DNA of 64,000 nt from a virus, in the IMG/VR virus record IMGVR_UViG_3300033047_000016; one strand, 5' to 3'. Below the pieces are notes generated by a model, which was not told the origin of the DNA, searched no databases, and worked only from the letters and a program-made list of their open reading frames with translations. The translations under genes were made by a program, and so were the position numbers. This document shows, piece by piece, positions 28,133-53,276 of this stretch (the stretch's first letter is position 1; every line of letters starts with the position of its first letter).

Positions 28133-28386
28133 GACGTGGTGCACATAATGGGACCTAATCCCGTTGGGCAGTCATGTCGATTACAACTGTACGACATGGA
28201 CCCTTTCAATTCTATCCCACACTTTGGGCATGTTGGTGAATTCAGCATCGGTGGTGCTGGATATGTTGGTGCCGGATAAAAATCGTCTCGTGGGTGCTCT
28301 AAATAATTATTATGCTTCCGCTGCACCGCAACCAGTTCTTCTAATAGTTCTTCTATGCGCCGTAGCCTATCTGAAAGCTTACTCAT
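28129..28386 (-). CDS. small Zn-ribbon hypothetical protein
   Basis: CPKCG..YSCNRHDCP motif; start overlaps the portal stop. Confidence 0.55.
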   Translation of the reverse strand: MSKLSDRLRRIEELLEELVAVQRKHNNYLEHPRDDFYPAPTYPAPPMLNSPTCPKCGIELKGSMSYSCNRHDCPTGLGPIMCTTS

Positions 28387-30061
28387 CGTCGTCGGTCTCA
28401 TCATCATCATCAGACGATTTCATTTCCGCGTCAATTTGCTTGGTCAGCGCACGGGCATCTTTAGTCTGCTGTTGTACTCCCGGCGTGCTTGGTTCACCCG
28501 GAGACGCTTTGACGTCTTCGGAGGCCATACCAAACTCAGCCCGCATCAAGCGGAATTCGTGGAAGGCGTCTGCATCTGGGAAATTCTTCATTCTCGCCAG
28601 AACATCTACCATGTTGGGGAATTGATTCGACTGCTTCAGGAGGCTCTTATATTCTTCCTCATCCATCCATTCTGGAATTACTTCCGCGCGACTTAGATAA
28701 TCGTAGACAACGTCCACGGGAATAATGCCATCCATATACATTTGGTGGATGGCGCGGAATTCTCTCGCGCCAGCGTCTTTGATTAAGAAGTCACGGTTCA
28801 ATTCAAATGTTATTGCTTTGATGGTAGATTTAGACGCGTTGCTCCAATCCGCCCACCACTGCAATATTTCGGTCACGGCCTCATCAACAGTATCCGCAAT
28901 ATTGAGCAACAGTGTTTGCTCGTTGCGCTCTTGCATCACAAGGGAGTTATCTGATTCGGCTGCGCCACGTGATGATCCGGGCATCATGCGTCCACCGATG
29001 GATGCAATCTGACCTTCTTTTGATCGCAGGATATTTTCCAAATGTTGTAGCCCGCGCCCGTTAAATTCTAGCAGCTTGGCTTCTTCATCTTTATCCAATA
29101 TCCACACGACATCAGGGCCGACCTCATAGTTGCCTTGATCTTGTGAACTATCATTTTGCACGACAAAGATCGGACTACCTGTGTAAAACAGAGCCTGCTC
29201 TAACTGTGCATAAGACATGTAGTGGGAAAAGTTTAATGTGGCAATATCCAAGATCGGCGGCTTCTGCACGTCTGGATAATTTGTGAACGGGCCAATTATC
29301 TTGAATGGAATGTAATCGAGCGTCTTACCGCGCACGGTAGGCGTGACTATTAGGTCTGGTGCTGCATCAATATCTGGGATCGCTGCGGCGTTATCGGATT
29401 CGGAATACACGAATTGGCTATAAACCAGATCACCACTAGCGTCTTCTTCCAACGTCAGTACCCGGAACCTAGATTTGAAGTCGTACGGCGACCAGTGACC
29501 TTCTCTGGAATAGTAAATCTCACGCAGGGTAACCTTCGACAGGACCCACGATCCATTAACCTCTGACATCTGCCAGTCGAGAATATTCTCAGCCGTGTAA
29601 CACGAAATGTATGGGTCTCCGACACCATTAGGATCAGCGTCAACCAACATACCATAGCGACCTACAGCCAAGACTTCCTTTACAGCAGTCTTTGACATTA
29701 GGTGGAGGGACATACCCTCTTTCGTGATTCTCTTTGAAGACTCTTTTAGTTTTGGGGTGAACCCAGCTATTTTAGGTAGCCTACGGAATACAGTACCGTA
29801 CAAGGCATTAAGTGTCCGCGCGGTCATGTTGTAAAACACAGACCGACGTAAATAAGCTTTGTATTGAGTGGCGTTGTGCGTTGCTTGGCGCGGGAGGTAT
29901 TTCTCCCCCTTGCGCTTCACTTCGATTTCACCTATCTCTGCATCGCGAATCATTTCCCAATGTGGGGACCAGTACGCGTAGTCTGGATGCAATACTGGGG
30001 ATGCGCGATAGGGAACGGACAACGCCGCCCTAGTGTCTGGATTTGGTACTGAACTACTCAT
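28379..30061 (-). CDS. portal protein (DUF4055 family)
   Basis: HPDY...GEKYLP..YLRRSVFYNMTART..GRYGMLVD..YTAENILDW..KPPILDIA. Confidence 0.9.
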   Translation of the reverse strand: MSSSVPNPDTRAALSVPYRASPVLHPDYAYWSPHWEMIRDAEIGEIEVKRKGEKYLPRQATHNATQYKAYLRRSVFYNMTARTLNALYGTVFRRLPKIAGFTPKLKESSKRITKEGMSLHLMSKTAVKEVLAVGRYGMLVDADPNGVGDPYISCYTAENILDWQMSEVNGSWVLSKVTLREIYYSREGHWSPYDFKSRFRVLTLEEDASGDLVYSQFVYSESDNAAAIPDIDAAPDLIVTPTVRGKTLDYIPFKIIGPFTNYPDVQKPPILDIATLNFSHYMSYAQLEQALFYTGSPIFVVQNDSSQDQGNYEVGPDVVWILDKDEEAKLLEFNGRGLQHLENILRSKEGQIASIGGRMMPGSSRGAAESDNSLVMQERNEQTLLLNIADTVDEAVTEILQWWADWSNASKSTIKAITFELNRDFLIKDAGAREFRAIHQMYMDGIIPVDVVYDYLSRAEVIPEWMDEEEYKSLLKQSNQFPNMVDVLARMKNFPDADAFHEFRLMRAEFGMASEDVKASPGEPSTPGVQQQTKDARALTKQIDAEMKSSDDDDETDDDE

Positions 30062-30912: not shown

Positions 30913-30984
30913 TGGTCAGGGTATCGGGGATCGAACCCGATCAGCAAGCTTCCAAAGCCCACGCCGTCACCAGAACATACCCTG
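30913..30984 (-). tRNA. tRNA-Pro(TGG), non-canonical fold
   Basis: CAGGGTA/TACCCTG acceptor, TT-TGG-AA loop, TTCGA T-loop, CCA. Confidence 0.85.
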
Positions 30985-30991
30985 TATAAAG

Positions 30992-31066
30992 TGGAGCCTC
31001 CAAACGGAATCGAACCGATTTCTCTGGATTACAAAACCAGCACATCACCATTTATGCTTTGGAGGC
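30992..31066 (-). tRNA. tRNA-Thr(TGT)
   Basis: Cloverleaf, TT-TGT-AA loop, CCA. Confidence 0.9.
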
Positions 31067-31150
31067 ATTTGTCTGTTACAATAGACACGAAATGGCTTCG
31101 TGTCCAGTATATAATACATTTGGTGCCAAATTACTCTGACACTTGTGTTG

Positions 31151-31226
31151 TGGTGCTGGCGGTGGGAGTTGAACCCACGACTTCTGCTTTACGAGAGCAG
31201 CGCTCTGGCCACTGAGCTACACCAGC
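31151..31226 (-). tRNA. tRNA-Thr(CGT)
   Basis: Cloverleaf, CT-CGT-AA loop, CCA. Confidence 0.92.
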
Positions 31227-31282
31227 GAGTGCCTGTTACAACGGTCATATAAAGCCTTGTGACCGTTGTAACGGGCATAGTT

Positions 31283-31357
31283 TGGTCTCCCCGGAAGGAA
31301 TCGAACCCTCGATTTTCGGTTTAGAAGACCAAAACCCGATAAACCATCGGCGGAGAG
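31283..31357 (-). tRNA. tRNA-Arg(TCT), non-canonical fold
   Basis: CT-TCT-AA loop, TTCGA, CCA; D hairpin abuts the acceptor stem. Confidence 0.85.
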
Positions 31358-31361
31358 ATTA

Positions 31362-31436
31362 TGGCACCCTCGGAAGGAATCGAACCTTCAATTCTCAGCT
31401 TAGGAGGCCAAAACCCGATAGACCATCGGCGAGGGT
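31362..31436 (-). tRNA. tRNA-Arg(CCT), non-canonical fold
   Basis: CT-CCT-AA loop, TTCGA, CCA; D hairpin abuts the acceptor stem. Confidence 0.85.
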
Positions 31437-31567
31437 CAGGAAGACATTACGACACGTTCAATGTCGCAACGGTTGATGCCAATATCGCTAAGTTCGCGCT
31501 CTGACATGCGGTAAAGTTGATCGCGCGCTTTGTTGCGTGCGAGGTAACGGCGGATAGCTGAAAACAT
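31436..31567 (-). CDS. DUF1127 (YjiS/CcaF1-like) small protein, 43 aa
   Basis: Not in ORF track. AGGAG SD; MFSAIRRYLARNKARDQLYRMSERELSDIGINRCDIERVVMSS carries the L..MS.R.L.DIG..R.DI signature. Confidence 0.85.
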   Translation of the reverse strand: MFSAIRRYLARNKARDQLYRMSERELSDIGINRCDIERVVMSS

Positions 31568-31668
31568 TTCGGAAACTCCTTTTGATTGATTTCAAATCGG
31601 AGTATACTCTTATGCCACACATGCACAACACACACGCAGACATTCCCGTCATGCTTCCACTGCATATG

Positions 31669-31756
31669 TGGCGGAGGGCGGAGGAATCGAACCCCACACG
31701 TTTCCGTGCGAACCGCTTTCCAAGCGGACCCCGCCGACCAGACAGGATCGCCCTCC
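31669..31756 (-). tRNA. tRNA-Ser(GGA)
   Basis: TT-GGA-AA loop, long variable arm, G73, CCA. Confidence 0.9.
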
Positions 31757-31805
31757 ATATGGGCCGCAATACTTACGCATTGTGTAAGCGATAGCGGCCC
31801 ACTAA

Positions 31806-32312
31806 TCAGTGCATCGACGGTGTGCTCTTGAACTTTCCACGCACACCGTGGTCTGCCACGTAAGAAGCGGCAAACGCGTCAGGCTTAGTCTTTACCGTAC
31901 GCCCTGTAACGCCCCTCAGATAGCCCACTGCCGCGCCGTGTGCGCAGTTAGAGCCGTGCTTTGGGTCGGCGTTGATGTCGAGGTGTACTTCAACCTCGTG
32001 CTCCAACAACAATTCTTCAAGCTGCTGGTAAGCTTCAGCCGTTTTATAAGCTTCATTCATCATTCGCATAATCGGGCGGTTCATTTTCTGATCGTAGTCG
32101 ATCATTTTTTCAGTGTCAGTGAACACCTTACAGCCGTGCCCGATACCGTTCTCGTCAATGTTGTGAATGACTACGGCAGTGGTGTACGACGCATGCCACA
32201 CGGCTTGTTTGTCACGATACCTGTTGGAGTCGCAGCCGATGTATACACGAGATTCTGGTGTAGCTTCACTCAGAACTTCTCGGATTCTTTTGACGGTTTT
32301 TTCTCTCAACAT
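31806..32312 (-). CDS. RNase H-like YkuK-family protein
   Basis: YIGCDS..RMMNEA..EVHLDIN..HGS..KPDAFAASYVAD. Confidence 0.85.
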   Translation of the reverse strand: MLREKTVKRIREVLSEATPESRVYIGCDSNRYRDKQAVWHASYTTAVVIHNIDENGIGHGCKVFTDTEKMIDYDQKMNRPIMRMMNEAYKTAEAYQQLEELLLEHEVEVHLDINADPKHGSNCAHGAAVGYLRGVTGRTVKTKPDAFAASYVADHGVRGKFKSTPSMH

Positions 32313-32333
32313 GTCGGACTCCTTTCTGTTAAG

Positions 32334-32747
32334 TTACGGATGCAGAGGTAGTTTCAATACTGCCCTGAATGTCAATACTGGATAGTCTGGGCAAAAAACG
32401 TACCCACAAGTTTTAACGGGAATAGCGTGTGTGACGTTACCATCGCGAACCGGATAAGTTGGATCGAGAATTATGTCCGACGGAGCACCCCAAGCTTTTG
32501 CTTGTTTTACCATATTTACCAATTCGTATTCGCTGTCCACACTAACAACCATTGTCGTGCCGAAGCCTTGCTCCGTCTGGTTGGACCAGTTATGGAACCC
32601 CGGAACGTGGTCACCGGGATTCTCACCAAGACTAGCAACAAATGCGTTGGCAGCGTGCGCCGCTTGCGCCATGCCTTTACCGGGGTTCATTGAATCCATG
32701 TCAGTGCGAATCAAAATATACAGGATCGGGTTCGGGTCCATGTTCAT
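32334..32747 (-). CDS. peptidyl-tRNA hydrolase, PTH2 family
   Basis: YILIRTDM.SMNPGKGMAQAAHAA motif. Confidence 0.85.
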   Translation of the reverse strand: MNMDPNPILYILIRTDMDSMNPGKGMAQAAHAANAFVASLGENPGDHVPGFHNWSNQTEQGFGTTMVVSVDSEYELVNMVKQAKAWGAPSDIILDPTYPVRDGNVTHAIPVKTCGYVFCPDYPVLTFRAVLKLPLHP

Positions 32748-32760
32748 ACTCCTTCGTTGT

Positions 32761-32850
32761 TGGCGGATGGCGGAGGACTTGAACCCCGACCCAATTAAGG
32801 GCCAACTCGATTAGCAATCGGTTCCGGCGCGCCTGTCCGGTTCACCATCC
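32761..32850 (-). tRNA. tRNA-Ser(GCT)
   Basis: TT-GCT-AA loop, long variable arm, CCA. Confidence 0.9.
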
Positions 32851-32951
32851 AATAATATTACCTACTCTTGACACACAGTAAACGGTATGTCAACATCTGC
32901 AAGTAAAAAACTCACGCCCACGGGAGAACCCTCTAAGTGGTTTCGACAATA

Positions 32952-33206
32952 TCACCAGTACCAATGGTGCGGCTTACGCGCCAATGGCCATGTCATGTTT
33001 TCCACATCTTCGCCGCGTAATACTTTCTGCACCATAAGACGCACTTCCATGCGTTTTGGCCTATGGTGGAAGATGATATCATGGGAGGATGGGGACCCTT
33101 GCCACCACTTCCATTCAAGGTCAGTGCCCGCAAATTTCCTTTTCAAATAATTGCAACTACCCTTGCACGCTAGTACGCGGGAGCGCTTTCTCTTGTGATG
33201 TGCCAT
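32952..33206 (-). CDS. basic, Trp-rich hypothetical protein
   Basis: TAAGGAG SD; preceded by an ATG-TTA-TAG mini-ORF. Confidence 0.7.
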   Translation of the reverse strand: MAHHKRKRSRVLACKGSCNYLKRKFAGTDLEWKWWQGSPSSHDIIFHHRPKRMEVRLMVQKVLRGEDVENMTWPLARKPHHWYW

Positions 33207-33255
33207 ATTCGGTCTCCTTAGTTACCTATAACATGACAAATCTCCTTTTATGTTT

Positions 33256-33330
33256 TGGTGCTGTCGGGGAGAATCGAACTCCCGCTAACCCCCTACCAAA
33301 GGGTTGTGCTACCATTATCACTACGACAGC
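33256..33330 (-). tRNA. tRNA-Thr(GGT)
   Basis: TT-GGT-AG loop, CCA. Confidence 0.92.
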
Positions 33331-33500
33331 AGGTCTCTTGCGCGGCGCTTACGATCTTCAAGCATTGACAGTGTGTGCTGCCTATCCGCTTCTGGCATTT
33401 TCAGCCAATTCTGTATTTCTGTCAATGTTCGCCCACAAATCTTACAGATGCAAGTTTTAGGGTCGATATGGCAACTAGTGCGGCATGCTGGTTCAAACAT
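33321..33500 (-). CDS. DUF1289-like Cys-rich small protein
   Basis: C...C.ID....C..CGRTLTEI..W..M motif. Confidence 0.75.
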   Translation of the reverse strand: MFEPACRTSCHIDPKTCICKICGRTLTEIQNWLKMPEADRQHTLSMLEDRKRRARDLLS

Positions 33501-33518
33501 ACTGGTTCCCCGGTAGTG

Positions 33519-33601
33519 TGGCATCGGTGTGAGGAATCGAACCCCTTACCCACGGCTTTGGAGACCGCTGAGTGGACCACCACCCATTAGGTTACACCGA
33601 T
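33519..33601 (-). tRNA. tRNA-Trp(CCA), enlarged D region
   Basis: CT-CCA-AA loop, G73, CCA. Confidence 0.85.
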
Positions 33602-33603
33602 AT

Positions 33604-33679
33604 TGGCGCTCTCGGCAGGACTCGAACCTGCCACCTTACCCTTCGGAGGGGTACGCTCTTCCAGATGAGCTACGAAAGC
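33604..33679 (-). tRNA. tRNA-Arg(CCG)
   Basis: Canonical cloverleaf, CT-CCG-AA loop. Confidence 0.93.
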
Positions 33680-33729
33680 ATATTCACACTTTACACCAGT
33701 TTGGTTCTAATGCAAGCCTCATCGGAGGA

Positions 33730-34491
33730 CTAATCCGTCAAATCTTTTAGACGTTCGCCTAGTGTCCTGTTCCCAACCATCGTTGTCAGCGTAATTGCCT
33801 GACGGCGCTTGCGTGGGTAACGTTCAGCTAGTACCTCGAACGGGTCGCGTTCGATGATGGTCTTCACTTCCACCCGCTGGATAATAGGCTTTGGGTACAA
33901 CGCCGAAGAATGTGTGCGCATCAGGTTCATCTTATCGGGGATTCCTCCGGCAAGATCATACTGGCCATGAATTTTAGCGGCTATCTGCATTTTGCTCCAC
34001 TCAATACTGTACAGCTTGTAACGGTCAATACCGTTGGTCAAGTATACGCGAACTGGGCGTGTGCTATGAATAATGCGCTGCTTCCGCTCCACCAGACATT
34101 CAAGCCAATAGTTGTCCTTCTCCATCAAGTCGGATAGAGACGTCTTTAGTGGGCCAAACCTAAGTGTACGCTCAACCAGTGGGTGCATCTGCTTTATCAG
34201 TAAATCCCCGTCTTCTTTGTCGTTAGTTATTTCCAGAGACGGGCCATCAAAAATTTCGAACCCGTCGCAAGTTACTTGCTTTTCTCTTGCTTCTCCTACG
34301 TTTGGAGTATCTTGATTCATCATCATTTCAGCCAACTCCTTTTCATACTGTTTCAAATCTTTGGGTGCGAAACGCGGGCACGGTCTGCCTTCTTTATTGG
34401 TTCCCCACCCGACAAAGCGATATGGCTTGCCCTTGGTACAGACGTGTTTGCGAAAAACTCTTGCCATAGCGTTGGGTGGCATTGCTGCCAC
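33730..34491 (-). CDS. hypothetical protein
   Basis: 253-aa ORF on the coding strand. Confidence 0.65.
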   Translation of the reverse strand: MAAMPPNAMARVFRKHVCTKGKPYRFVGWGTNKEGRPCPRFAPKDLKQYEKELAEMMMNQDTPNVGEAREKQVTCDGFEIFDGPSLEITNDKEDGDLLIKQMHPLVERTLRFGPLKTSLSDLMEKDNYWLECLVERKQRIIHSTRPVRVYLTNGIDRYKLYSIEWSKMQIAAKIHGQYDLAGGIPDKMNLMRTHSSALYPKPIIQRVEVKTIIERDPFEVLAERYPRKRRQAITLTTMVGNRTLGERLKDLTD

Positions 34492-34500
34492 CCATTTGCC

Positions 34501-34740
34501 TTAGCTTAGCACAGCAGCGATGTCTTCTGCCGACAGCCCCGCGCTTTGCAGTTCATCAAGAATGTTCGCGTCGATATCGGCCAAAACCTTTTCCGCCGCT
34601 TCCCGGTCGTCGAGCATCTTGCTGATCTTTCCCTTCAGGGATTCAATCTTCTTCTTGCGCCGCGACGCCTGTACTTGGGACAGAAGCCCCTCGCCTGTTA
34701 CCTGACTGTTCTGATCACTCATATCTTTCTCCTTCTCCAT
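34501..34740 (-). CDS. hypothetical coiled-coil protein
   Basis: ORF with SD; start may be 34722. Confidence 0.6.
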   Translation of the reverse strand: MEKEKDMSDQNSQVTGEGLLSQVQASRRKKKIESLKGKISKMLDDREAAEKVLADIDANILDELQSAGLSAEDIAAVLS

Positions 34741-34802
34741 TTGGTTATCATTGTGATAAACACCTAATAGAGTGATTCGGATTCGAATGCAAGAAGAAAG
34801 TT

Positions 34803-34878
34803 TGGTGAACCGGGAGAGATTCGAACTCTCGACGCCGGGGGTAAAAGCCCCGCGCTCTGACCACTGAGCTACCGGTAC
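34803..34878 (-). tRNA. tRNA-Lys(TTT)
   Basis: CT-TTT-AC loop, CCA. Confidence 0.92.
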
Positions 34879-34888
34879 GTGTTGTTTT

Positions 34889-34980
34889 TGGCGGACAGCC
34901 GAGGTCTCGATCCCCAGACGAGGCTGTCCTCGCCCGATCCGCTTTCAAGGCGGTCCCCGGCCCCGCCGAGTTGACTGTCC
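34889..34980 (-). tRNA. tRNA-Ser(TGA)
   Basis: CT-TGA-AA loop, long variable arm, CCA. Confidence 0.88.
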
Positions 34981-34981
34981 A

Positions 34982-35539
34982 TTAAGTGTGTTGCGTTGCG
35001 CGTATAACCATGCCAGAATTAATCACTTCACCGTTTCCAGAAAGTCTGACCTGTGGAACGATTGGGTTGTCGCGTGTGTTGCTATCACCGATGTAGATGT
35101 AATTTGTTGTCAAGGCAAATCTATGCCCGACCACACCAGAGTCCAGTTTTCCTAGCGAGCTTTCCAACGTGTATGAACCGGCCCCAGTTCCTAACATATA
35201 CCTGAACGATAGTATCAGGTTCTGTGCGTCTGGTGTGACAATGAAGTCGTGGCGTATGATGATATCTGATCCGATAGTAAGGTCTGTCACATCAATGTTT
35301 CCACCCGCCGACATTAAAGCCGCGACGTCAATTGGTAGATACGTCAGCAATGTATTTGGACCCAAAGAATCATTAGTCAACGTCGTCCACGTATCTGTCA
35401 CCAAGTCGATTGGTGCTAACACTGTTGCAGCATCATTGTAGTCTGCAAAGCCATGGCGGTCGCGCAAAAATATCTGGTTCGCGTCGAGTTCTGTGTGTGT
35501 TAACGCTGTGCCTTTGGCTGCGCGTGTAAGAATTCCCAT
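34982..35539 (-). CDS. structural/fibre-like protein
   Basis: N-terminal LTRAAKGTALTHTELDAN anchor motif common in phage fibre proteins. Confidence 0.65.
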   Translation of the reverse strand: MGILTRAAKGTALTHTELDANQIFLRDRHGFADYNDAATVLAPIDLVTDTWTTLTNDSLGPNTLLTYLPIDVAALMSAGGNIDVTDLTIGSDIIIRHDFIVTPDAQNLILSFRYMLGTGAGSYTLESSLGKLDSGVVGHRFALTTNYIYIGDSNTRDNPIVPQVRLSGNGEVINSGMVIRATQHT

Positions 35540-35540
35540 A

Positions 35541-35708
35541 TCACTCTCCCTCTACATACCCTGCATCAACGTATCCGGTGTCTACATACAAATTGATATT
35601 TACCGGAATATCCGCTTCAATGAATTCCAGAATGCTACCCGTTGGCGCTGTCTTTATCGGAGAAGTAGGACTGCGGTTTGGGGACAAGTCCTTTACCGAA
35701 ACAGGCAT
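35541..35708 (-). CDS. 55-aa hypothetical protein with YVDTGYVDAGYV motif
   Basis: Manual translation; coupled to both neighbours. Confidence 0.6.
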   Translation of the reverse strand: MPVSVKDLSPNRSPTSPIKTAPTGSILEFIEADIPVNINLYVDTGYVDAGYVEGE

Positions 35709-36001
35709 CAGGTAACTTCCAAAGCTACCGGTGCCATGGCTACAGACACATCAGTACTAGCACCTTGTACGCTGACTGTTATGAACGCCGTGCAAGCTGG
35801 TAACCACACAATCTCGGCTATAGGCGCAGTGTATGCCATTCCCGCCACAGGTACTCCTGTAGCTGGGCCTATGTTAAGCTTGAACGTTACAGTGGCACCG
35901 TCGAACACACCACCAACGGCAAACAAGTATCTGCCCGCTTGGATTGGTACCGATTGTGTGTCGCCGTTTACTTTTTGATTCTGTGTGATAACGAATGTCA
36001 T
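35708..36001 (-). CDS. small beta-sandwich structural protein
   Basis: Paralogue of 30527..30823. Confidence 0.65.
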   Translation of the reverse strand: MTFVITQNQKVNGDTQSVPIQAGRYLFAVGGVFDGATVTFKLNIGPATGVPVAGMAYTAPIAEIVWLPACTAFITVSVQGASTDVSVAMAPVALEVT

Positions 36002-36082
36002 GATGCTCTCCAAGATTGTCCGTCTTATTGATGCGTCGTATTGTAACACCACCGTTACCGTAAAGCAACTGGCGTCGGTTTA

Positions 36083-36157
36083 TGGTACTCCGCCTCAGAA
36101 TCGAACTGAGACCACAAGCGTTATGAGCGCTGCGCTCTACCGTTAAGCTAACGGAGC
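36083..36157 (-). tRNA. tRNA with CAT anticodon (Met or Ile2)
   Basis: CT-CAT-AA loop, CCA. Confidence 0.88.
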
Positions 36158-36165
36158 ATGTTCAC

Positions 36166-36504
36166 CTAAGCTGCGAAAAGATCACCAAGCGTTGGTGGGT
36201 CTGTGTCGTTGGCTGCGTCGAATGACCAGCCTTCACCGTCTCCGGTATATATGTCGTGTGGGCAGATGTCACAACAGTCGCAACAGTCTGTTGAAAAGCA
36301 AAAAGTGAACCCGTACTCGGCAGTCTCATAGTCATACCAATAAGGGTCGATCATTCCATCCACGCTACGCGGTCTTGGGCCAGAACCCCAGCGCATGCTA
36401 ACGATCTTTCTATTACCAATTTGTGTTGGAGGTAGCTCTGCGCTATTCAATGCGCGGCGAACGCGGCGTGAAATTACATTTTTGTTTCGCTTCTTCGTGC
36501 TCAT
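36166..36504 (-). CDS. hypothetical protein, basic N-terminus and Cys cluster
   Basis: AGGAG SD directly after a tRNA. Confidence 0.6.
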   Translation of the reverse strand: MSTKKRNKNVISRRVRRALNSAELPPTQIGNRKIVSMRWGSGPRPRSVDGMIDPYWYDYETAEYGFTFCFSTDCCDCCDICPHDIYTGDGEGWSFDAANDTDPPTLGDLFAA

Positions 36505-36522
36505 AGCTTTCTCCTTTTCTGT

Positions 36523-36610
36523 TGGCGGATGGCGGAGGTCTCGATCCCCTAACCGTTAAGTCTTCATCGCTTTCGAAGCGAGCCCGGCGCGCCTGTCCGG
36601 TTCACCATCC
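36523..36610 (-). tRNA. tRNA-Ser(CGA)
   Basis: TT-CGA-AA loop, long variable arm, CCA. Confidence 0.88.
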
Positions 36611-36617
36611 TAGTATT

Positions 36618-36693
36618 TGGTACGCGAGGTGGGAGTCGAACCCACACTGAACGGGACTTAAATCCGCTGCCTCTGCCTTTGGGCTACTCGCGC
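36618..36693 (-). tRNA. tRNA-Leu(TAA), short variable loop
   Basis: TT-TAA-GT loop, CCA. Confidence 0.85.
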
Positions 36694-36697
36694 ATGT

Positions 36698-36775
36698 TGG
36701 TACGGGATACGGGACTCGAACCCGTAAAACTCTAGTGTTTGAAACCAGCGACTTTGCCAATTTGCCCAATCCCGC
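36698..36775 (-). tRNA. tRNA-Leu(CAA), short variable loop
   Basis: TT-CAA-AC loop, CCA. Confidence 0.88.
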
Positions 36776-36778
36776 ATG

Positions 36779-36949
36779 TTACAATTCGTGGATGCTTACC
36801 AGTTCTGCTGTACGAACAGCTTCAGCCAGCTTATCCTCGATGCTGTTTGTATCAATTGGTCCAATGAACCCAGCGTCCAACAAGAACGCTATGTCGATAA
36901 CCCTGCAACCGGGGTACTTCTCTTCCAGAGCATCAATCACTTTCTGCAT
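36779..36949 (-). CDS. 56-aa hypothetical protein
   Basis: AAGGAG SD; MQKVIDALEEKYPG...; manual translation. Confidence 0.6.
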   Translation of the reverse strand: MQKVIDALEEKYPGCRVIDIAFLLDAGFIGPIDTNSIEDKLAEAVRTAELVSIHEL

Positions 36950-36968
36950 CTTCTATACTCCTTGTTGT

Positions 36969-37046
36969 TGGTACGCATGGAGGGACTCGAACCCTCAAAA
37001 CTCTTGGACCTAAACCAAGCGACTTTGCCAATTTGCCCACACGCGC
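36969..37046 (-). tRNA. tRNA-Leu(TAG), short variable loop
   Basis: TT-TAG-GT loop, CCA. Confidence 0.88.
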
Positions 37047-37052
37047 ATGTGT

Positions 37053-37136
37053 TGGTGCCGATGAAGGGAGTCGAACCCTCAACCCCGAAGGGTACAGTTT
37101 CTGAAACTGCTGCGTATACCATTCCGCCACATCGGC
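37053..37136 (-). tRNA. tRNA-Leu(CAG)
   Basis: TT-CAG-AA loop, long variable arm. Confidence 0.92.
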
Positions 37137-37145
37137 TGATGTGTT

Positions 37146-37227
37146 TGGTGCCCGTGACTGGACTCGAACCAGCACTCCGAAGAACAGCCCTCTCAAGACT
37201 GCGTGTCTACCATTTCACCACACGGGC
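37146..37227 (-). tRNA. tRNA-Leu(GAG)
   Basis: TT-GAG-AG loop, long variable arm. Confidence 0.92.
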
Positions 37228-37263
37228 GTGTAGTTGGTTGTCCAATTTGATGAACAACGTAGT

Positions 37264-37338
37264 TGGTTGTCCCGGTTGGGATTGAACCAACGACACATGG
37301 CTTATCGGGCCACCGCTCTACCACTGAGCTACGGGACA
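37264..37338 (-). tRNA. tRNA-Ile(GAT)
   Basis: CC-GAT-AA loop (C33), CCA. Confidence 0.9.
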
Positions 37339-37440
37339 TTGAATAGGCGCGAGCTATGGGGCTTTAGGCCCTGCTGCGGTTACCGTGCGCACGTCACCAA
37401 CAGCCCCGACTGCCTTGACGACAATCCGCACCTCGCATAA

Positions 37441-37516
37441 TGGTAGTCCCGGTAAGATTCGAACCTACGACCTTCCACTAATCAGGTGGACGCTCTTCCA
37501 ACTGAGCTACGGGACC
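37441..37516 (-). tRNA. tRNA-Ile(GAT), second copy
   Basis: CT-GAT-TA loop (U37), CCA. Confidence 0.9.
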
Positions 37517-37686
37517 ATGAGGTCGGGAGCCATGCAACATGTCTCGTCTTTCATCTGGCGCGACCCAGACCGACCGTAATAGTGTGGTGACTTTGCTACG
37601 CTGGCGTCACCGGGCCTCGATAGATTCAAAGCCGATAGGCAGTGAACTCGGTAATTTGGAGCAATCCTCTGGATCACTCGTGAATC

Positions 37687-37760
37687 TGGAGCGGATACGG
37701 GGTAACGCTCCCCGTTAATTTGATTGGCAACCAAGTGCATTACTTTTATGCTATACCCGC
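37687..37760 (-). tRNA. tRNA-Gly(GCC), atypical D and T loops
   Basis: GCGGGTA acceptor, U73, TT-GCC-AA; T-loop AGCGTTA. Confidence 0.82.
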
Positions 37761-37963
37761 AAATCCACCTTTTACTGCGGGACTTACCCACACCACGTCA
37801 AGCGTGGAGGACGATGGTGTCCTATTGGCCTATTAAGGTGGCCAGCCACACTACCCGCGCCTTCCACGCATGCTACGCTTAGTTACCGGGCAGTTCCTAT
37901 ATTGCTCGCGACCTGTCACCGCAACGCTCGAAGCCTATCTAGGCAACATTACGCAAGCAAAAG

Positions 37964-38037
37964 TGGAGCGGACGGAGAATTTCGAAATCTCGCGCATGGG
38001 TTGGAAACCCACTGCTCTGCCTCTGAGCTACGCCCGC
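37964..38037 (-). tRNA. tRNA-Gly(TCC)
   Basis: TT-TCC-AA loop, U73, CCA. Confidence 0.9.
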
Positions 38038-38068
38038 AAACTCTACGACTTTGTTGTAGCCGCAATCT

Positions 38069-38323
38069 TTATTCAATAACTGGCTCTTCAATGATACACC
38101 AATGGGACGGTATCCATTCAAGCTCCACTTCTTCTGTTTCCATGTCCCAACAACACCCGCGTGCACAGCGGACTTTTATTTCTCTGGTCATTACCATACC
38201 TTCTTCAGTACGGTACCAACGGCCATCCATCAGGATCGCCATCTGTAGTTGTTCATCTTGGGACCACGTCAATATTTCTTCGCCGTGGTTTGGGCGGCGG
38301 CTTTCAACCGCTATCCAGTTCAT
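38069..38323 (-). CDS. DUF551-like hypothetical protein
   Basis: MNWIAVESRRP...PSHW motif. Confidence 0.6.
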   Translation of the reverse strand: MNWIAVESRRPNHGEEILTWSQDEQLQMAILMDGRWYRTEEGMVMTREIKVRCARGCCWDMETEEVELEWIPSHWCIIEEPVIE

Positions 38324-38748
38324 GCTGCTGCCCTCGTGACAGTTTCGTGACAGCTTCCCGACATCTTTGTGACATCTTCGGTGTCGAACCACTCGGTGAC
38401 GGCGTCAGCCGTGATCGTTTTATCGTGATACTTCATCAAGAGCTTGTGCACTCGTCCGATGAGTTTTCCACGTGTGTACGGGTCCAACCGTGTATTTCGT
38501 TCAATGGTGCAATACGCATGCCCTTTAATGAAACTCCGCGCAAGCTGTGTAGCCCGCGATTCCCACCGGACGATTCCGATGCGATGTTCATAAAGGTCTT
38601 GTCGTTTGCGTGCGCACGCTGCACCTTCTTCTGCCTGCTGGTGTTCAGTATACCAATTGGCGGTGCGTTTCAGTTTCAATTCCTCGCGGCGAATGATCTG
38701 TGCTTCTACGGCGAGTGATTTTGCTTTGATCTTAAGTTCGATTGACAT
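38320..38748 (-). CDS. hypothetical phage protein (SD hidden in a hairpin)
   Basis: MSIELKIKAKSLA..HRIGIVRWESRATQLARSFIKG..Y..IE; GGAGG SD. Confidence 0.75.
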   Translation of the reverse strand: MSIELKIKAKSLAVEAQIIRREELKLKRTANWYTEHQQAEEGAACARKRQDLYEHRIGIVRWESRATQLARSFIKGHAYCTIERNTRLDPYTRGKLIGRVHKLLMKYHDKTITADAVTEWFDTEDVTKMSGSCHETVTRAAA

Positions 38749-38755
38749 TTTTATG

Positions 38756-38826
38756 CCTCCATATTTACGTTTCAAATAGTGTGTAATGAAACGTCGCTAT
38801 CATGGAGGTTTTTCGATCTACAACAT
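38756..38826 (-). promoter_or_regulatory. ATG-TTG-TAG leader plus anti-SD hairpin (putative readthrough-sensing switch)
   Basis: AAGGAG-ATG TTG TAG; stems CCTCCATG/TATGGAGG and ACGTTTCA/TGAAACGT. Confidence 0.65.
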
Positions 38827-38862
38827 GGCCTTCTCCTTTTCTTCTGGTCTTGGTTACAAATT

Positions 38863-38936
38863 TGGTGCGCCCGGTGGGAGTTAAACCCACTTAAAACTGT
38901 TTTAGAGGCAGGTGCATTCCCCAATGCTACAGGCGC
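38863..38936 (-). tRNA. amber suppressor-like tRNA (CTA)
   Basis: GCGCCTG/CGGGCGC acceptor, loop CT-CTA-AA, weak anticodon stem, CCA. Confidence 0.75.
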
Positions 38937-38984
38937 TTACTCGTATCAACATACACGTGATTCGCGCAGTGTCAAGGATTATTT

Positions 38985-39056
38985 TGGCACTCGGTGGGAG
39001 AGTCGAACTCCCCAAGCTGGCTTCGTAGACCCGCCACCGGTTCCGCCGGACCAAGT
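38985..39056 (-). tRNA. tRNA-Arg(ACG), non-canonical fold
   Basis: CT-ACG-AA loop, TTCGA, CCA. Confidence 0.8.
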
Positions 39057-39086
39057 ATTGATGCAACCGAAGGTCACACAATTTAT

Positions 39087-39162
39087 TGGTGCTCCTGATA
39101 GGATTCGAACCTACAACCTCCCGGTTCGTAGCCGGGTGCTCATCCAGTTGAGCTTCAGAAGC
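39087..39162 (-). tRNA. tRNA-Arg(ACG)
   Basis: Canonical cloverleaf. Confidence 0.92.
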
Positions 39163-39168
39163 GTTATT

Positions 39169-39423
39169 TCAGATAGTCTTCGACATCAATAATTTCGATG
39201 CCTGCGTCGTGTGAGAGTCCCAATCAACAAAAAAAGAGTCAGGTGCAGGAGGTATCCTATTCAGGTCTCCGTACTCATTGATGTAGAACGCGAACTGAGC
39301 CAGCAAAAGTTTCTTAACCTGTGATACTGTCTCGGCTTGTACACAAATATCATACTCAAGGCACTGGGCAACGAAAATACCTAATTCACTGTTTGTGTAT
39401 ACTATAATCCTGACATGATCCAT
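39169..39423 (-). CDS. HicB-like small protein
   Basis: FVAQCLEYDICVQAET motif. Confidence 0.55.
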   Translation of the reverse strand: MDHVRIIVYTNSELGIFVAQCLEYDICVQAETVSQVKKLLLAQFAFYINEYGDLNRIPPAPDSFFVDWDSHTTQASKLLMSKTI

Positions 39424-39445
39424 GTACTTTCTTTCCGTGTGTACG

Positions 39446-39847
39446 TTATTTCAAAAAGTCTTCGACATCAATAATTTCGATGCCTGCATCGTGCATGATC
39501 TTCATCATACTGGAAGTCCCCCGCCCACCGGGGAACGCCACACATATATCAATCGAGAACATGTCGTGCATGAACTTGTTGCGGGCCATCCCGGCAGCAT
39601 CCCCAAGACCAGTCCAATTGGCTGGTACCTTGATCTGTTGTATGCCGACTTCCTCAGCCCACCTACCGGAGAGCGCGTCAGCGCCCTTGTAAGCCACTGG
39701 GTGCGCCCTGTAGCCCTGCTTGTACGCGCCAGCGTCACCATGTATCACAAGCGTAAACTTGTGCTCTGCGTGGAATTTATTCATCATGAAACGTAGCTCG
39801 CCGTACAGCGCGTATTCGCGTCCGCCGCATACTAAAACTTTCATCAC
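39446..39847 (-). CDS. SLOG family (DUF2493/YspA-like) protein
   Basis: KVLVCGGR..IHGDA..GADAL..PANW..AGMARN..AFPGGRGT..M. Confidence 0.85.
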   Translation of the reverse strand: MMKVLVCGGREYALYGELRFMMNKFHAEHKFTLVIHGDAGAYKQGYRAHPVAYKGADALSGRWAEEVGIQQIKVPANWTGLGDAAGMARNKFMHDMFSIDICVAFPGGRGTSSMMKIMHDAGIEIIDVEDFLK

Positions 39848-39859
39848 AAAATTCCTTAT

Positions 39860-39934
39860 TGGCGCTGGTAACGAGACTCGAACTCGCCTTTTCCGCTAGA
39901 CAGGCGGACCTATTCCCTGATTAGGTATACCAGC
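39860..39934 (-). tRNA. tRNA-Asp(GTC)
   Basis: CT-GTC-TA loop, G73, CCA. Confidence 0.85.
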
Positions 39935-39944
39935 ATTGTCGTTG

Positions 39945-40220
39945 TTAGGAAAGCCCTCGTTCTTTCCAAAAATCGTTTTCATCTTCTTCGGGAATACAGA
40001 ACAGCGAGTAACCTACCGGACCTGTCCACTGATGCCCGTTGTATAGTTGCTCCATCGCTGTAACAATTACGTTCTGGTTTCGCCTAATTTCGTGGGCACG
40101 TAAGATACACGCTGTCTCAGTTCGCGGATGAATGAACTCATCTGACACCCACGTGCATTTCGACATATCTGGCTCACCAGCAATGGCTGCACAGAAAGCA
40201 ATAATAGGGATAAATGGCAT
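39945..40220 (-). CDS. hypothetical protein
   Basis: ORF between tRNAs with a hydrophobic N-terminus. Confidence 0.55.
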   Translation of the reverse strand: MPFIPIIAFCAAIAGEPDMSKCTWVSDEFIHPRTETACILRAHEIRRNQNVIVTAMEQLYNGHQWTGPVGYSLFCIPEEDENDFWKERGLS

Positions 40221-40238
40221 TCAGTGTCTTTTCGTGTT

Positions 40239-40315
40239 TGGTGTGCCGGGTGGGATTTGAACCCACGATCCAAGATTAAGAGTCAAGAGCTTTAGACCAA
40301 CTAAGCTACCGGCGC
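40239..40315 (-). tRNA. tRNA-Lys(CTT)
   Basis: CT-CTT-AA loop, CCA. Confidence 0.88.
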
Positions 40316-40451
40316 ATGTTTAAACAAATTGGGCGAGGTCAGCACAGCTTTCCTCGCCCGAAACCATCGGTAAGCTGACGCGCCAGCTAGATGATGGTAA
40401 ACTTGCGCGGTAGGCCGCGAATTCGATCATGTTTCAAAAGTCGTTTCATAA

Positions 40452-40853
40452 TCATTCTCCCTCTATTGGGACCAGCCAGAAGCCATTCCCAGTTGTGTGC
40501 GGACCAACGATTCTCCATCCGAGGGCCTGCATCTTGTCTTTGTTTATCGTCATTAGAACACGAACGTTTCCAACCGGATCAGAAGGCATCGGTGTCAACA
40601 CATTTGCGTACGCCGCGTTTATAATCTCTTCAAGACTTAGCCCACGGCGCATTCTGCGAGACTCCAACAGTGCCGCAATAATACCAACGTAGCGTCCTGA
40701 CCAATGCCCCATCAACCATTCTGGACTTAGCCTGTATGTTGTTGGCTGTCCACATGTTGGGCAAAATGGTGTTTCTTCTTTTCCGTCCACATCGTCCTCG
40801 AATCTGGTGCAGGGTTTTTGTCCAGAACCCCACGAAACTGCATCGAAACGCAT
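40452..40853 (-). CDS. hypothetical protein, Zn-ribbon plus possible winged helix
   Basis: CPTCGQ motif. Confidence 0.55.
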   Translation of the reverse strand: MRFDAVSWGSGQKPCTRFEDDVDGKEETPFCPTCGQPTTYRLSPEWLMGHWSGRYVGIIAALLESRRMRRGLSLEEIINAAYANVLTPMPSDPVGNVRVLMTINKDKMQALGWRIVGPHTTGNGFWLVPIEGE

Positions 40854-40913
40854 CGTGGCTGAACAACACGACCGCTTTGTGAGACTAATACTTACGTCAA
40901 TCGTTAAATGGTG

Positions 40914-41288
40914 TCAAGTGCTTTCGGTCGTGTGTTGTAATAATTCTGCGTGAATTTCTCTGTGACAGTTTGCACAAACAAGTATACATTTGTCTAGCTC
41001 TTTCTTAACCCGTTTCCACGATCTGGTGTGCCCGTTGTGGCCCGGACCAAATTCTTTTTCATCTGGGTTTATGTGATGAAATTCGAGTGCCCCTACACAT
41101 TTATCATATCCACATTTGCAGCACTTCCCGCCTTTGTATTCAAGGGACATAAGTTTGACTTTTCGCCTTCGCCTTGAAACAGCATCGGAGCGACATTGGA
41201 GGCAGCGCCAGTATCCACGAGATTCCAATACATGCGCATGTTTTCCATGATGCTTACACGTTAGATTCTGTCTCCTGTTTACTGGCAC
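40914..41288 (-). CDS. HNH endonuclease
   Basis: YKGGKCCKCGY..ALEFHH..KCILVCANCHREIH. Confidence 0.9.
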   Translation of the reverse strand: MPVNRRQNLTCKHHGKHAHVLESRGYWRCLQCRSDAVSRRRRKVKLMSLEYKGGKCCKCGYDKCVGALEFHHINPDEKEFGPGHNGHTRSWKRVKKELDKCILVCANCHREIHAELLQHTTEST

Positions 41289-41303
41289 CTACTTATCCTA
41301 TTA

Positions 41304-41380
41304 TGGCTCCACACCTCAGATTCGAACTGAGCACAAACGCATTAACAGTACGCCTTCCCCGCCTAGAGGAACCGTGTGGA
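41304..41380 (-). tRNA. tRNA-Asn(GTT)
   Basis: CT-GTT-AA loop, G73, CCA. Confidence 0.88.
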
Positions 41381-41470
41381 ATATGTCGTTTAGATCATAA
41401 AGCATCATTATGATGATCAGATCATACTTTCTGGTCTCACTCTTGCGCCGCGCGCTGATGAGTATAATTC

Positions 41471-41544
41471 TGGATGCCCGCCGAGGAATCGAACCTCAAT
41501 TTCTAGAGTCAAATTCTAGCGTCCTGCCGTTAGACGACCGGGCA
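41471..41544 (-). tRNA. tRNA-Gln(TTG)
   Basis: U1-A72, AT-TTG-AC loop, CCA. Confidence 0.88.
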
Positions 41545-41684
41545 ATGGTGGGCACGGATGGCTTTCGACACCACCTGCACCACTTTCGGTATACTTTACA
41601 TAGCCATTCCGACAGGCTCTCCTTTGACGCGTGTGTTCACAGCCAGAGCTATATAGTAGCTGCTATTAAGACCACATCAAAACT

Positions 41685-41759
41685 TGGTGGATCGCCGGGG
41701 AATCGAACCCCGACTCCCTGCTTGCAAAGCAGGTGTGCTCCCGTTATCACTAGCGACCC
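41685..41759 (-). tRNA. tRNA-Ala(TGC)
   Basis: G3-U70, TT-TGC-AA loop. Confidence 0.93.
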
Positions 41760-41764
41760 ATATT

Positions 41765-41836
41765 TGGTGGAGCTACGGGGTAACGATCCCCACCATCAAC
41801 ATTGCAAATGTCGAGTCCGTCCCATACGGTAGCCCC
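41765..41836 (-). tRNA. tRNA-Ala(TGC), non-canonical fold
   Basis: GGGGCTA/TAGCTCC with G3-U70, TT-TGC-AA loop, CCA. Confidence 0.82.
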
Positions 41837-44175: not shown

Positions 44176-44260
44176 TGGTGGGCGGGTGAGGACTCGAACC
44201 TCTCCCTGTTACAGTACGGCTTTACAGGCCGCTCATCGGAACCCCCGATTTTACCCGCCC
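44176..44260 (-). tRNA. tRNA-Tyr(GTA)
   Basis: CT-GTA-AA loop, long variable arm, CCA. Confidence 0.88.
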
Positions 44261-49944: not shown

Positions 49945-50020
49945 TGGTCAGGGTAACTGGATTCGAACCAGCGCCGCTCCCTTCCGAGGGGAGTACTCTA
50001 CCAGACTAAGCCATACCCTG
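49945..50020 (-). tRNA. tRNA-Pro(CGG)
   Basis: CT-CGG-AA loop, CCA. Confidence 0.92.
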
Positions 50021-53125: not shown

Positions 53126-53201
53126 TGGTGCACTCGGCAGGACTTGCACCTGCACCCCCCACCTCAAACGGCAGGTATACTTGTAGTTATACGACGAGTA
53201 C
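53126..53201 (-). tRNA. aberrant tRNA-like gene (TTG?)
   Basis: GTACTCG/CGAGTGC acceptor, CCA; 6-nt loop GTTTGA. Confidence 0.6.
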
Positions 53202-53202
53202 T

Positions 53203-53276
53203 TGGTGTCACCGATCAGATTCGATACTGATGTTTCTCACACTAAAGGCGAGTGTCCTGTCTTAGACGAAAGCGAC
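53203..53276 (-). tRNA. ochre suppressor-like tRNA (TTA)
   Basis: CTCGC-CTTTAGT-GTGAG anticodon arm, Glu/Gln-like D arm, 8-nt T-loop, CCA. Confidence 0.68.

Follow-up and report, generated by a model that had tools for sequence, protein, structure and literature searches.

Compact-core tRNA genes for arginine, proline and alanine in a large tailed phage and its relatives

Two kinds of tRNA with a compact core, the mammalian mitochondrial tRNA-Ser(UCN) and the pyrrolysine tRNA (tRNAPyl), have been reviewed, and both are described as forming an L shape (PMC7609411). Non-canonical tRNAs of another kind, 8/4 tRNA-Ser, tRNA-His and allo-tRNAs, have been reported in alpha-proteobacterial phages (Mukai et al., Nucleic Acids Res 2017, PMC5389517). 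Here, five tRNA genes are examined in 64,000 nucleotides of the IMG/VR virus record IMGVR_UViG_3300033047_000016 (the window). They carry the anticodons of tRNA-Pro(UGG), tRNA-Arg(UCU), tRNA-Arg(CCU), tRNA-Arg(ACG) and tRNA-Ala(UGC), and share a compact fold without the usual connector between the acceptor and D stems. To judge by their sequences, the five are probably working phage elongator tRNAs with a remodelled core, whose shape looks like a selected design and not like decay. This compact-core type is described neither in PMC7609411 nor in the main text of PMC5389517, and full-text literature searches found no report of a compact-core phage tRNA type.

In the common fold (Table 1), the 7-bp acceptor stem is followed, without any 8-9 connector nucleotide, by a 4-5-bp D stem closed by a 5-nt D loop containing GG. 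After 1-2 linker nucleotides come an anticodon stem of 6-7 bp, a variable loop of 2-3 nt, a T stem of 5 bp and the encoded CCA. Each gene was recovered by a scan requiring a 7-bp acceptor, a T arm of 5 bp and NCCA, with 7/7 acceptor pairs and 5/5 T-stem pairs. Outside the core, all five display the 7+5 branch, 7-nt T loop, discriminator base and CCA of canonical tRNAs, and across the family alignments the helices of this branch are 98-100% paired. Their anticodon loops are equally canonical, with 7 nt, U33 and a purine at position 37 (TTTGGAA, CTTCTAA, CTCCTAA, CTACGAA and TTTGCAA for Pro, Arg(UCU), Arg(CCU), Arg(ACG) and Ala). By contrast, none possesses the U8/N9 connector or a D loop of at least 7 nt with A14 and R15. 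The GG of the D loop is present in five of five, and the T loop reads TTCGAnn in four, that of Ala being ATCGTTA. The Ala acceptor (GGGGCTA/TAGCTCC) carries G3-T70; the G3-U70 identity element of tRNA-Ala, initially reported as kept, is present, and charging with alanine is predicted from it.

Alternative folds were compared with a parser that exhaustively scores all combinations of a 0-2-nt connector, a D stem of 3-5 bp and an anticodon stem of 4-7 bp with the possible D loops, linkers and variable loops. The compact model was its best fit in all five genes, by 9-18 score units over the best canonical fit, which confirms the five folds and positions proposed in the initial annotation. Every correctly registered canonical tRNA of the window has a connector of 1-2 nt, and none of them fits the compact model. 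Single-sequence folding energies gave no significant z (-1.5 to +0.5), as is usual for tRNAs; they are therefore not used as evidence, and support for the fold comes from covariation.

Covariation is seen in the family of the Arg(ACG) gene. Six cultured phages, DSS3_MAL1 (hereafter MAL1), DSS3P8, vB_RpoS-V10, RpAliso, MD18 and RcXuper, contain genes 85-90% identical to the compact Arg(ACG) of the window. The listed host is Ruegeria pomeroyi DSS-3 for DSS3P8, vB_RpoS-V10 and RpAliso, Phaeobacter for MD18 and Rhodobacter capsulatus for RcXuper. A compact Arg(CCG) gene is found in all five cultured relatives that were parsed (DSS3P8, MAL1, RpAliso, MD18 and RcXuper, vB_RpoS-V10 being left aside). 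It is built as CCAG-CGGAA-CTGG followed by linker T; its anticodon stem has 7 bp, its variable loop 3 nt and its T loop the sequence TTCGACT. An alignment of 20 distinct compact Arg(ACG/CCG/UCG) genes has standard pairs in 98.5% of its pair cells, against 77% in shuffled controls and no more than 50% after displacement of the partners by 1-3 columns; a 12-sequence subset gives 98.9%. The initial annotation had made its proposal depend on covariation among homologues, and covariation is indeed present, with both sides changed in 17 of the 23 pairs. The D stem abutting the acceptor is 100% paired, one of its pairs being A-U in 11 sequences and G-C in 9, and the nucleotides that replace positions 8 and 9 form invariant C-G pairs in 20/20, followed by a pair that covaries. 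The 7-bp anticodon stem is 96% paired, with covariation in five of seven pairs. The D loop is CGGAA in 19 of 20 genes of the family, MD18 Arg(CCG) having CGGAG.

The remaining genes belong to smaller alignments. Thirteen sequences comprising Arg(UCU/CCU), hereafter Arg(YCU), and relatives show an acceptor paired in 100% of cells, a T stem in 98.5% and the abutting D helix in 85%, with two covarying pairs in the latter. Only the inner three pairs of their anticodon stem are conserved, the perfect 7-bp stem being peculiar to the copies of the window. Eight Pro and Ala sequences are paired in 97.7% of cells, and the sixth pair of the anticodon stem is standard in 100%. In Pro, this sixth pair undergoes a compensatory change from G-C to C-G in L004 (L-numbers are our locus labels). 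An Ala orthologue (L008 2065) displays a compensatory change within the D stem, from CCGT/ACGG to CTGT/ACAG. Compact Ala is also found in L003, DSS3P8, MAL1, MD18 and RcXuper, and G3-U70 is kept in every compact Ala, namely those of the window, L008, L003, DSS3P8, MAL1, MD18 and RcXuper. A pattern scan with the Pro T arm and acceptor recovered one more compact Pro, which has an identical D arm and so affords no covariation test.

Standard tools mostly overlook these genes. The gathering score of the Rfam tRNA model RF00005 is 29 bits and none of the five reaches it: compact Pro stops at 27.1 bits, the sole match of Arg(UCU) is to the tRNA-Sec model (23.6 bits), and Arg(CCU), Arg(ACG) and Ala have no Rfam tRNA match at E values up to 10. 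ARAGORN detects Pro(UGG) and Ala(UGC) but not the three Arg genes. A model built on the compact Arg genes, R1, gives these 60-85 bits and canonical tRNAs less than 50 bits; Arg(UCU) scores 85.4 bits and the Arg(ACG) of the window 60.8 bits, the weakest of its family. Compact Pro and Ala are not recognised by R1; hence the Arg, Pro and Ala families do not form a single sequence family.

Database records are affected in the same way. The compact Arg(ACG) orthologue is annotated in one of the six GenBank records of cultured relatives, and compact Arg(ACG) and Arg(CCG) are both unannotated in the records of DSS3P8, RpAliso, MD18 and RcXuper. The DSS3P8 record also lacks its compact Ala(UGC), and a gene labelled tRNA-Arg in it (record 15385-15455) has the anticodon GCA. 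The compact Ala of RcXuper is labelled tRNA-Ser(cga). For MD18, the tRNA count of the published paper was made by tRNAscan-SE only. Since compact genes are missed by the Rfam tRNA model, in part by ARAGORN, and in most of these GenBank records, phage tRNA repertoires and analyses of codon supply have been undercounted.

The compact Arg motif is nearly restricted to viral sequence. It was found at 17 IMG/VR loci representing 9 distinct sequences. Among the carriers are two complete genomes, one of 343 kb with terminal repeats and one of 218 kb; no portal homologue could be detected in either. Across 185,579 bacterial and archaeal species (one genome each), the motif scan gave 82 matches, for a chance expectation of about 17 under uniform base composition. 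A single match is tRNA-like; it belongs to an array of tRNAs on a contig of 23 kb from a metagenome-assembled genome. The other 81, each inspected, are coding-like sequence without acceptor stem or T arm. That the motif might be widespread in bacteria was rejected on the strength of this 1 in 82 and of the number expected by chance.

The window is part of a large tailed phage with a GC content of 49.7%. Upstream of its portal gene lies a 23-kb island, entirely on the minus strand, of about 45 tRNA-like genes, an alpha-type transfer-messenger RNA and a GOLLD RNA. The gene order is that of Roseobacter phage DSS3P8 (146 kb, host Ruegeria pomeroyi DSS-3), with a portal identity of 62%: in both, the portal is followed by Pro, Thr and Arg tRNAs, a DUF458/RNaseH-like gene and more tRNA arrays. 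A near-identity search of the GenBank phage collection with the 11-kb region revealed no closer relative than DSS3P8, only short tRNA matches, and uncultured relatives with portal identities of 57-81% were found in IMG/VR and Joint Genome Institute (JGI) metagenomes. Distant blastn searches with compact Pro and the compact Ala of the window returned no matches. The tandem Arg(YCU) pair matched only T-arm-sized pieces of unrelated phage tRNAs, and an exact pattern for its D arm had no IMG/VR match; the relatives of these genes were reached via the portal protein.

Comparison of the slots near the portal indicates the direction of change. In L013, L014 and DSS3P8 (portal identity 61-62%), canonical genes, Pro(GGG), Arg(CCU) or Arg(UCU), stand next to the portal. 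RpAliso shares this gene order and carries a canonical Pro(GGG) beside the portal, with an Arg(cct) annotated at canonical length. In the sub-clade of the window (portal identity 70-81%), the same slots are occupied by compact Arg(YCU), joined in most members by compact Pro(UGG). Because the 61-62% relatives have canonical genes at these slots, compaction at the Pro and Arg(YCU) slots is derived. Compact Arg(ACG), Arg(CCG) and Ala(UGC) are older, being common to both portal-identity groups. Compact genes of further isotypes exist as well: a compact His in the phage of L006, and compact CAU, UCU, CUG and UGU genes in other viral loci. Given these genes and the failure of R1 to recognise Pro and Ala, the compact design seems to have arisen or spread in several isotypes. 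The D stems of the CAU family covary (CGTTG/TAACG, CCGAG/TTCGG, CAGC/GCTG).

The compact genes are embedded in arrays, 4-7 nt from canonical tRNAs; compact Ala belongs to a four-gene array with 4-5-nt spacers, and Arg(CCU) lies 4 nt upstream of Arg(UCU). Compact Ala(UGC) and Arg(ACG) stand, as first noticed, beside canonical twins with the same anticodon, 5 nt and 30 nt away. The Ala pairing recurs in L003, DSS3P8, MAL1 and RcXuper, and the Arg(ACG) pairing in MAL1 and MD18. Retention of twins in several diverged phages suggests that the two forms are not equivalent. Other anticodons are borne by compact genes alone. The AGA/AGG decoders of the window (anticodons UCU and CCU) exist in compact form only, and in RpAliso the compact genes are the only ACG and CCG tRNA-like genes found in a scan of its 17-kb island upstream of the portal. 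A canonical Arg(CCG), present in the window, was not found in the stretches scanned of DSS3P8 and RpAliso. In the phage, CCA accounts for 39% of Pro codons, GCA for 33% of Ala codons, AGA and AGG together for 21% of Arg codons, and CGU, CGC and CGA for 66%. Canonical anticodon loops and well-used codons favour ordinary decoding.

A mechanism can be proposed in which the half of the molecule read by synthetases, RNase P and EF-Tu stays standard (7-bp acceptor, 5-bp T stem, CCA), together with the anticodon loop, and only the core is rebuilt. The U8/N9 connector is missing, or its place is taken by the D stem, whose first pair directly follows the acceptor. Of the D loop, the 5′ half has disappeared and some 5 nt remain, the GG of G18-G19 among them; the anticodon stem is extended to 6-7 bp and the variable loop trimmed to some 3 nt. 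If tRNAPyl and mitochondrial tRNA-Ser(UCN), which combine the same changes, are a guide, the extra length of the anticodon stem would make up for the layers missing from the core, and the phage tRNAs would adopt an L shape, whose elbow could still form between the GG of the D loop and the TTCGA of the T loop. The genes are probably co-transcribed with the adjoining canonical tRNAs and processed by host enzymes. Charging would be carried out by the host arginyl-, prolyl- and alanyl-tRNA synthetases (ArgRS, ProRS, AlaRS) via elements outside the remodelled core. The products would then decode AGA/AGG, CGN, CCA and GCA, codons well used by a phage of about 50% GC. We infer transcription, processing, charging, ribosomal use and any advantage of compaction. 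Escherichia coli ArgRS reads an A20 element together with C35, and the near-invariant CGGAA D loop is consistent with G18, G19 and this A20 element. The anticodon loop CUACGAA of Arg(ACG) is a standard substrate context for deamination of A34.

The initial annotation spoke of a selected alternative tRNA architecture, and several lines of evidence support it: compensatory substitutions preserve the fold among diverged phages, the genes are closely packed with canonical tRNAs, identity elements outside the core are kept, and the ACG and CCG genes found in the 17-kb island of RpAliso are exclusively compact. Several observations weigh against working tRNAs with a remodelled core. The shuffle controls take sequences such as the 20 Arg genes as independent and ignore their relatedness. 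The connector of the Ala family ranges from 0 to 2 nt among phages, so that its absence is not a fixed rule, and most relatives of Arg(YCU) have mismatches (A-G, A-A) among the outer 2-4 pairs of the anticodon stem. The D stem of Pro (TGTT/GRCG) is weak, with two G-U among its four pairs; it is invariant in relatives, without compensatory change, and is the least supported helix. Finally, the Arg(ACG) of the window has an internal G-A mismatch in its anticodon stem and a variable loop 1 nt below the family consensus, and with a canonical twin at hand this copy may be drifting.

The last three of these points would be expected if the genes were decaying duplicates with deleted D arms that had escaped selection. 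Irregular tRNA-like sequences are also found beside the Arg(ACG) genes of two relatives (L004 3403-3478 and L008 4670-4751); they have an acceptor and a T arm without a clear D or anticodon arm, and may be decayed copies. Yet many double substitutions have left pairing intact in the acceptor, T, D and inner anticodon helices, both across phages with portals only 61-81% identical and in groups without a detectable portal homologue. The D and anticodon loops are invariant or nearly so, and some anticodons have no canonical bearer to fall back on. Decay is disfavoured by this covariation and is very unlikely. Still harder to sustain is the idea that the compact drawing is an artefact of secondary-structure bookkeeping, the molecules being ordinary cloverleaves with unusual pairs. 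The sixth anticodon-stem pair and 3-nt loop could be read as a Watson-Crick 26:44 pair with a 4-nt variable region, a 26:44-type pair occurs in several canonical tRNAs of the window, and the compact Ala of MAL1 and MD18 have two unpaired nucleotides after the acceptor. Nonetheless, the acceptor and anticodon stems are spaced by 13-16 nt, against at least 17 in a minimal canonical tRNA, and the best canonical fits incur 1-2 D-stem mismatches along with their lower scores. The pairing of the nucleotides in place of 8 and 9 in every Arg sequence, the covarying pair next to them and the failure of the Rfam tRNA model on all five point the same way, and this reading is scarcely credible.

A different kind of alternative accepts the fold and doubts the function: the genes could encode tRNA-shaped RNAs without a decoding role, acting as decoys or sponges for host nucleases that target tRNA, or distracting such enzymes from the canonical twins. 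Same-anticodon twins are retained in several phages, and tRNA-directed phage defence and phage tRNA counter-measures are documented (PMC10264068, PMC11464382). A decoy, though, would not need the anticodon loops, identity elements and encoded CCA that are all kept, and the compact anticodons match codons well used by the phage. No canonical ACG or CCG gene was found in the 17 kb scanned of RpAliso, and the window has none for UCU or CCU. Nothing in the sequence favours a decoy role, and we regard it as unlikely. Evasion of host defences that target tRNA and a role as non-ribosomal donor, both raised in the initial annotation, are hypothetical.

With the genes taken as working elongator tRNAs, a more speculative and, in our view, doubtful proposal concerns the reason for compaction. 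Large phages might repeatedly have swapped the canonical core for the compact one, across several isotypes and lineages, because a tRNA-directed enzyme reads the core; this enzyme could be a host defence nuclease or modifier, or an activity of the phage itself that destroys host tRNAs. If true, compact and 8/4 tRNAs would form a self-marked, attack-resistant set that sustains phage translation while host tRNAs are disabled. Some genes of the island and of relatives may be relevant. The window encodes a nucleotidyltransferase of the RlaP/phrog_388 type (tRNA-nucleotidyltransferase-like), and relatives add a peptidyl-tRNA hydrolase and a gene annotated as ribonuclease; such genes fit a setting of tRNA damage and replacement. 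The position of the RlaP/phrog_388 gene resembles that of a gene annotated as tRNA nucleotidyltransferase in RpAliso, and an annotated ribonuclease of RpAliso has a place similar to that of the DUF458 gene.

The island is rich in other unusual tRNA-like genes (Table 1). Of its six 8/4 genes, ARAGORN calls Ser GGA only. Three tRNA-like genes have stop-codon anticodons, and the one with UCA lies inside the GOLLD RNA; the island of MAL1 has a gene labelled tRNA-Pyl. T loops with A at position 54 are found at 41765-41836, 37687-37760, 34889-34980 and 36523-36610. Compact Ala (ATCGTTA) and Gly GCC (AGCGTTA) have T at position 58 too, and the two Ser genes read ATCGAGA; the same variant types recur in Gly, His and Ile genes of relatives.

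Table 1. Positions of the compact tRNA genes, their neighbours in the window and the related loci. D arms are written as stem-loop-stem.
Feature	Sequence	Position	Strand	Details
Portal gene, DUF4055	window	28379-30061	minus	
Compact tRNA-Pro(UGG)	window	30913-30984	minus	72 nt; TGTT-CTGGT-GACG; linker GC; 6-bp anticodon stem; variable loop TGA; ACCA
Compact tRNA-Arg(UCU)	window	31283-31357	minus	75 nt; CCGAT-GGTTT-ATCGG; linker G; 7-bp anticodon stem; variable loop ATC
Compact tRNA-Arg(CCU)	window	31362-31436	minus	75 nt; CCGAT-GGTCT-ATCGG; linker G; 7-bp anticodon stem; 3-nt variable loop
8/4 tRNA gene Ser GGA	window	31669-31756	minus	8-bp acceptor, 4-bp T stem
RNaseH-like DUF458 protein	window	31806-32312	minus	
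8/4 tRNA gene Ser GCU	window	32761-32850	minus	8-bp acceptor, 4-bp T stem
8/4 tRNA gene Trp CCA	window	33519-33601	minus	8-bp acceptor, 4-bp T stem
Canonical tRNA-Arg(CCG)	window	33604-33679	minus	ARAGORN call and canonical fit
8/4 tRNA gene Ser UGA	window	34889-34980	minus	8-bp acceptor, 4-bp T stem
8/4 tRNA gene Ser CGA	window	36523-36610	minus	8-bp acceptor, 4-bp T stem
tRNA-like gene, anticodon CUA	window	38863-38936	minus	stop-codon anticodon
Compact tRNA-Arg(ACG)	window	38985-39056	minus	72 nt; CCGG-CGGAA-CCGG; linker T; 7-bp anticodon stem; variable loop TG; T loop TTCGACT
Canonical tRNA-Arg(ACG)	window	39087-39162	minus	twin of compact copy; 62.4 bits (Rfam)
Canonical tRNA-Ala(UGC)	window	41685-41759	minus	twin of compact copy
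Compact tRNA-Ala(UGC)	window	41765-41836	minus	72 nt; CCGT-ATGGG-ACGG; linker AC; 6-bp anticodon stem; variable loop TGG; T loop ATCGTTA
8/4 tRNA gene Tyr GUA	window	44176-44260	minus	8-bp acceptor, 4-bp T stem
Nucleotidyltransferase, RlaP/phrog_388 type	window	44356-45318	minus	
tRNA-like gene, anticodon UCA	window	47800-47870	minus	stop-codon anticodon
Canonical tRNA-Pro(CGG)	window	49945-50020	minus	acceptor CAGGGTA/TACCCTG and A73 identical to compact Pro(UGG)
tRNA-like sequence	window	53126-53201	minus	76 nt; perfect 7-bp acceptor, 5-bp T arm, ACCA; no convincing anticodon arm
tRNA-like gene, anticodon UUA	window	53206-53276	minus	stop-codon anticodon
Compact Pro orthologue	L003	9719		
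Compact Pro orthologue	L004	9066		
Compact Pro orthologue	L010	5042		
Compact Pro orthologue	L147	1050		
Compact CAU family	L134	4826-4897		
Compact CAU family	L137	13134-13204		
Compact CAU family	L140	11116-11187		
Compact CAU family	L142	11671-11742		
Compact Arg(UCU)	L138	1053-1124		
Compact Gln(CUG)	L139	867-939		
Compact His(GUG)	L023	1462-1535		
Compact Thr(UGU)	L108	6593-6664		
Genes omitted or mislabelled in records	L024	13932-14004, 15575-15647, 17602-17675		
Genes omitted or mislabelled in records	L026	3000-3072, 4471-4543		
Genes omitted or mislabelled in records	L027	3000-3072, 5369-5441		
Genes omitted or mislabelled in records	L028	2994-3066, 4587-4659, 1186-1257		

These genes would represent natural tRNAs for three ordinary amino acids that apparently function in bacteria with a core otherwise known from tRNAPyl and mitochondria. 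What share of the tRNA core is needed by bacterial synthetases, EF-Tu, modification enzymes and ribosomes becomes a question for experiment, as do the reasons for keeping a compact gene beside its canonical twin and a possible counter-defence role of core remodelling. Carriers are in culture and their hosts (Ruegeria pomeroyi DSS-3, Phaeobacter inhibens DSM 17395 and Rhodobacter capsulatus) are tractable. Compact natural tRNAs are also candidate scaffolds for orthogonal tRNA design.

How the phage genes relate to other tRNAs with unusual architecture depends on which part of the molecule is compared. The 8/4 class shares their setting, as non-canonical tRNAs in clusters of alpha-proteobacterial phages, and the window itself holds six (four Ser, Tyr and Trp). 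The 8/4 and 9/3 allo-tRNAs have an acceptor of 8-9 bp, a T stem of 4-3 bp and a long variable arm, unlike the five compact genes, which combine a 7/5 branch with a variable loop of 2-3 nt and fall outside that class. Phage tRNAs that escape tRNA-targeting defences provide a parallel, since they too are phage isoacceptors duplicating a host or phage function, with a difference in a feature that might be read by a nuclease (eLife 2023, PMC10264068; T5 tRNA-Lys versus PARIS, PMC11464382). In those cases it is the anticodon loop that is altered, whereas the genes of the window have a canonical loop, an altered core and no linked nuclease or defence system.

The initial annotation likened the fold to tRNAPyl and mitochondrial tRNA-Ser(UCN), and both comparisons are accurate according to PMC7609411. 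The tRNAPyl molecules compared were above all that of Methanomethylophilus alvus, and also those of M. barkeri and D. hafniense (PDB 2ZNI). tRNAPyl resembles the phage genes in its 7/5 branch and compact core, with no connector nucleotide (M. alvus) or a single one (M. barkeri), 4-5 nt in the D loop, 6 bp in the anticodon stem and 3 nt in the variable loop (PMC7609411). It differs in its CUA anticodon and dedicated pyrrolysyl-tRNA synthetase (PylRS): the five phage genes have the compact core without this anticodon, reading instead UGG, UCU, CCU, ACG and UGC with Arg, Pro and Ala identity marks. There is no sequence relationship between them and tRNAPyl, and M. barkeri tRNAPyl lacks the G18-G19 and T-Psi-C elbow motifs that the phage genes keep.

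Mammalian mitochondrial tRNA-Ser(UCN) (type I) combines a shortened connector with a small D loop retaining G18-G19, T-Psi-C, a 6-bp anticodon stem and a 3-nt variable loop (PMC7609411). All five phage genes have this type I architecture, a likeness of architecture only, as they are neither mitochondrial nor serine-specific. The mitochondrial tRNA has one connector nucleotide and is a single serine isoacceptor, while the phage genes have none and form a set for Arg, Pro and Ala; those for Arg further differ in an anticodon stem of up to 7 bp and a D stem of up to 5 bp. Because the elbow nucleotides are kept, mitochondrial tRNA-Ser(UCN) is the best architectural match for the compact phage tRNAs.

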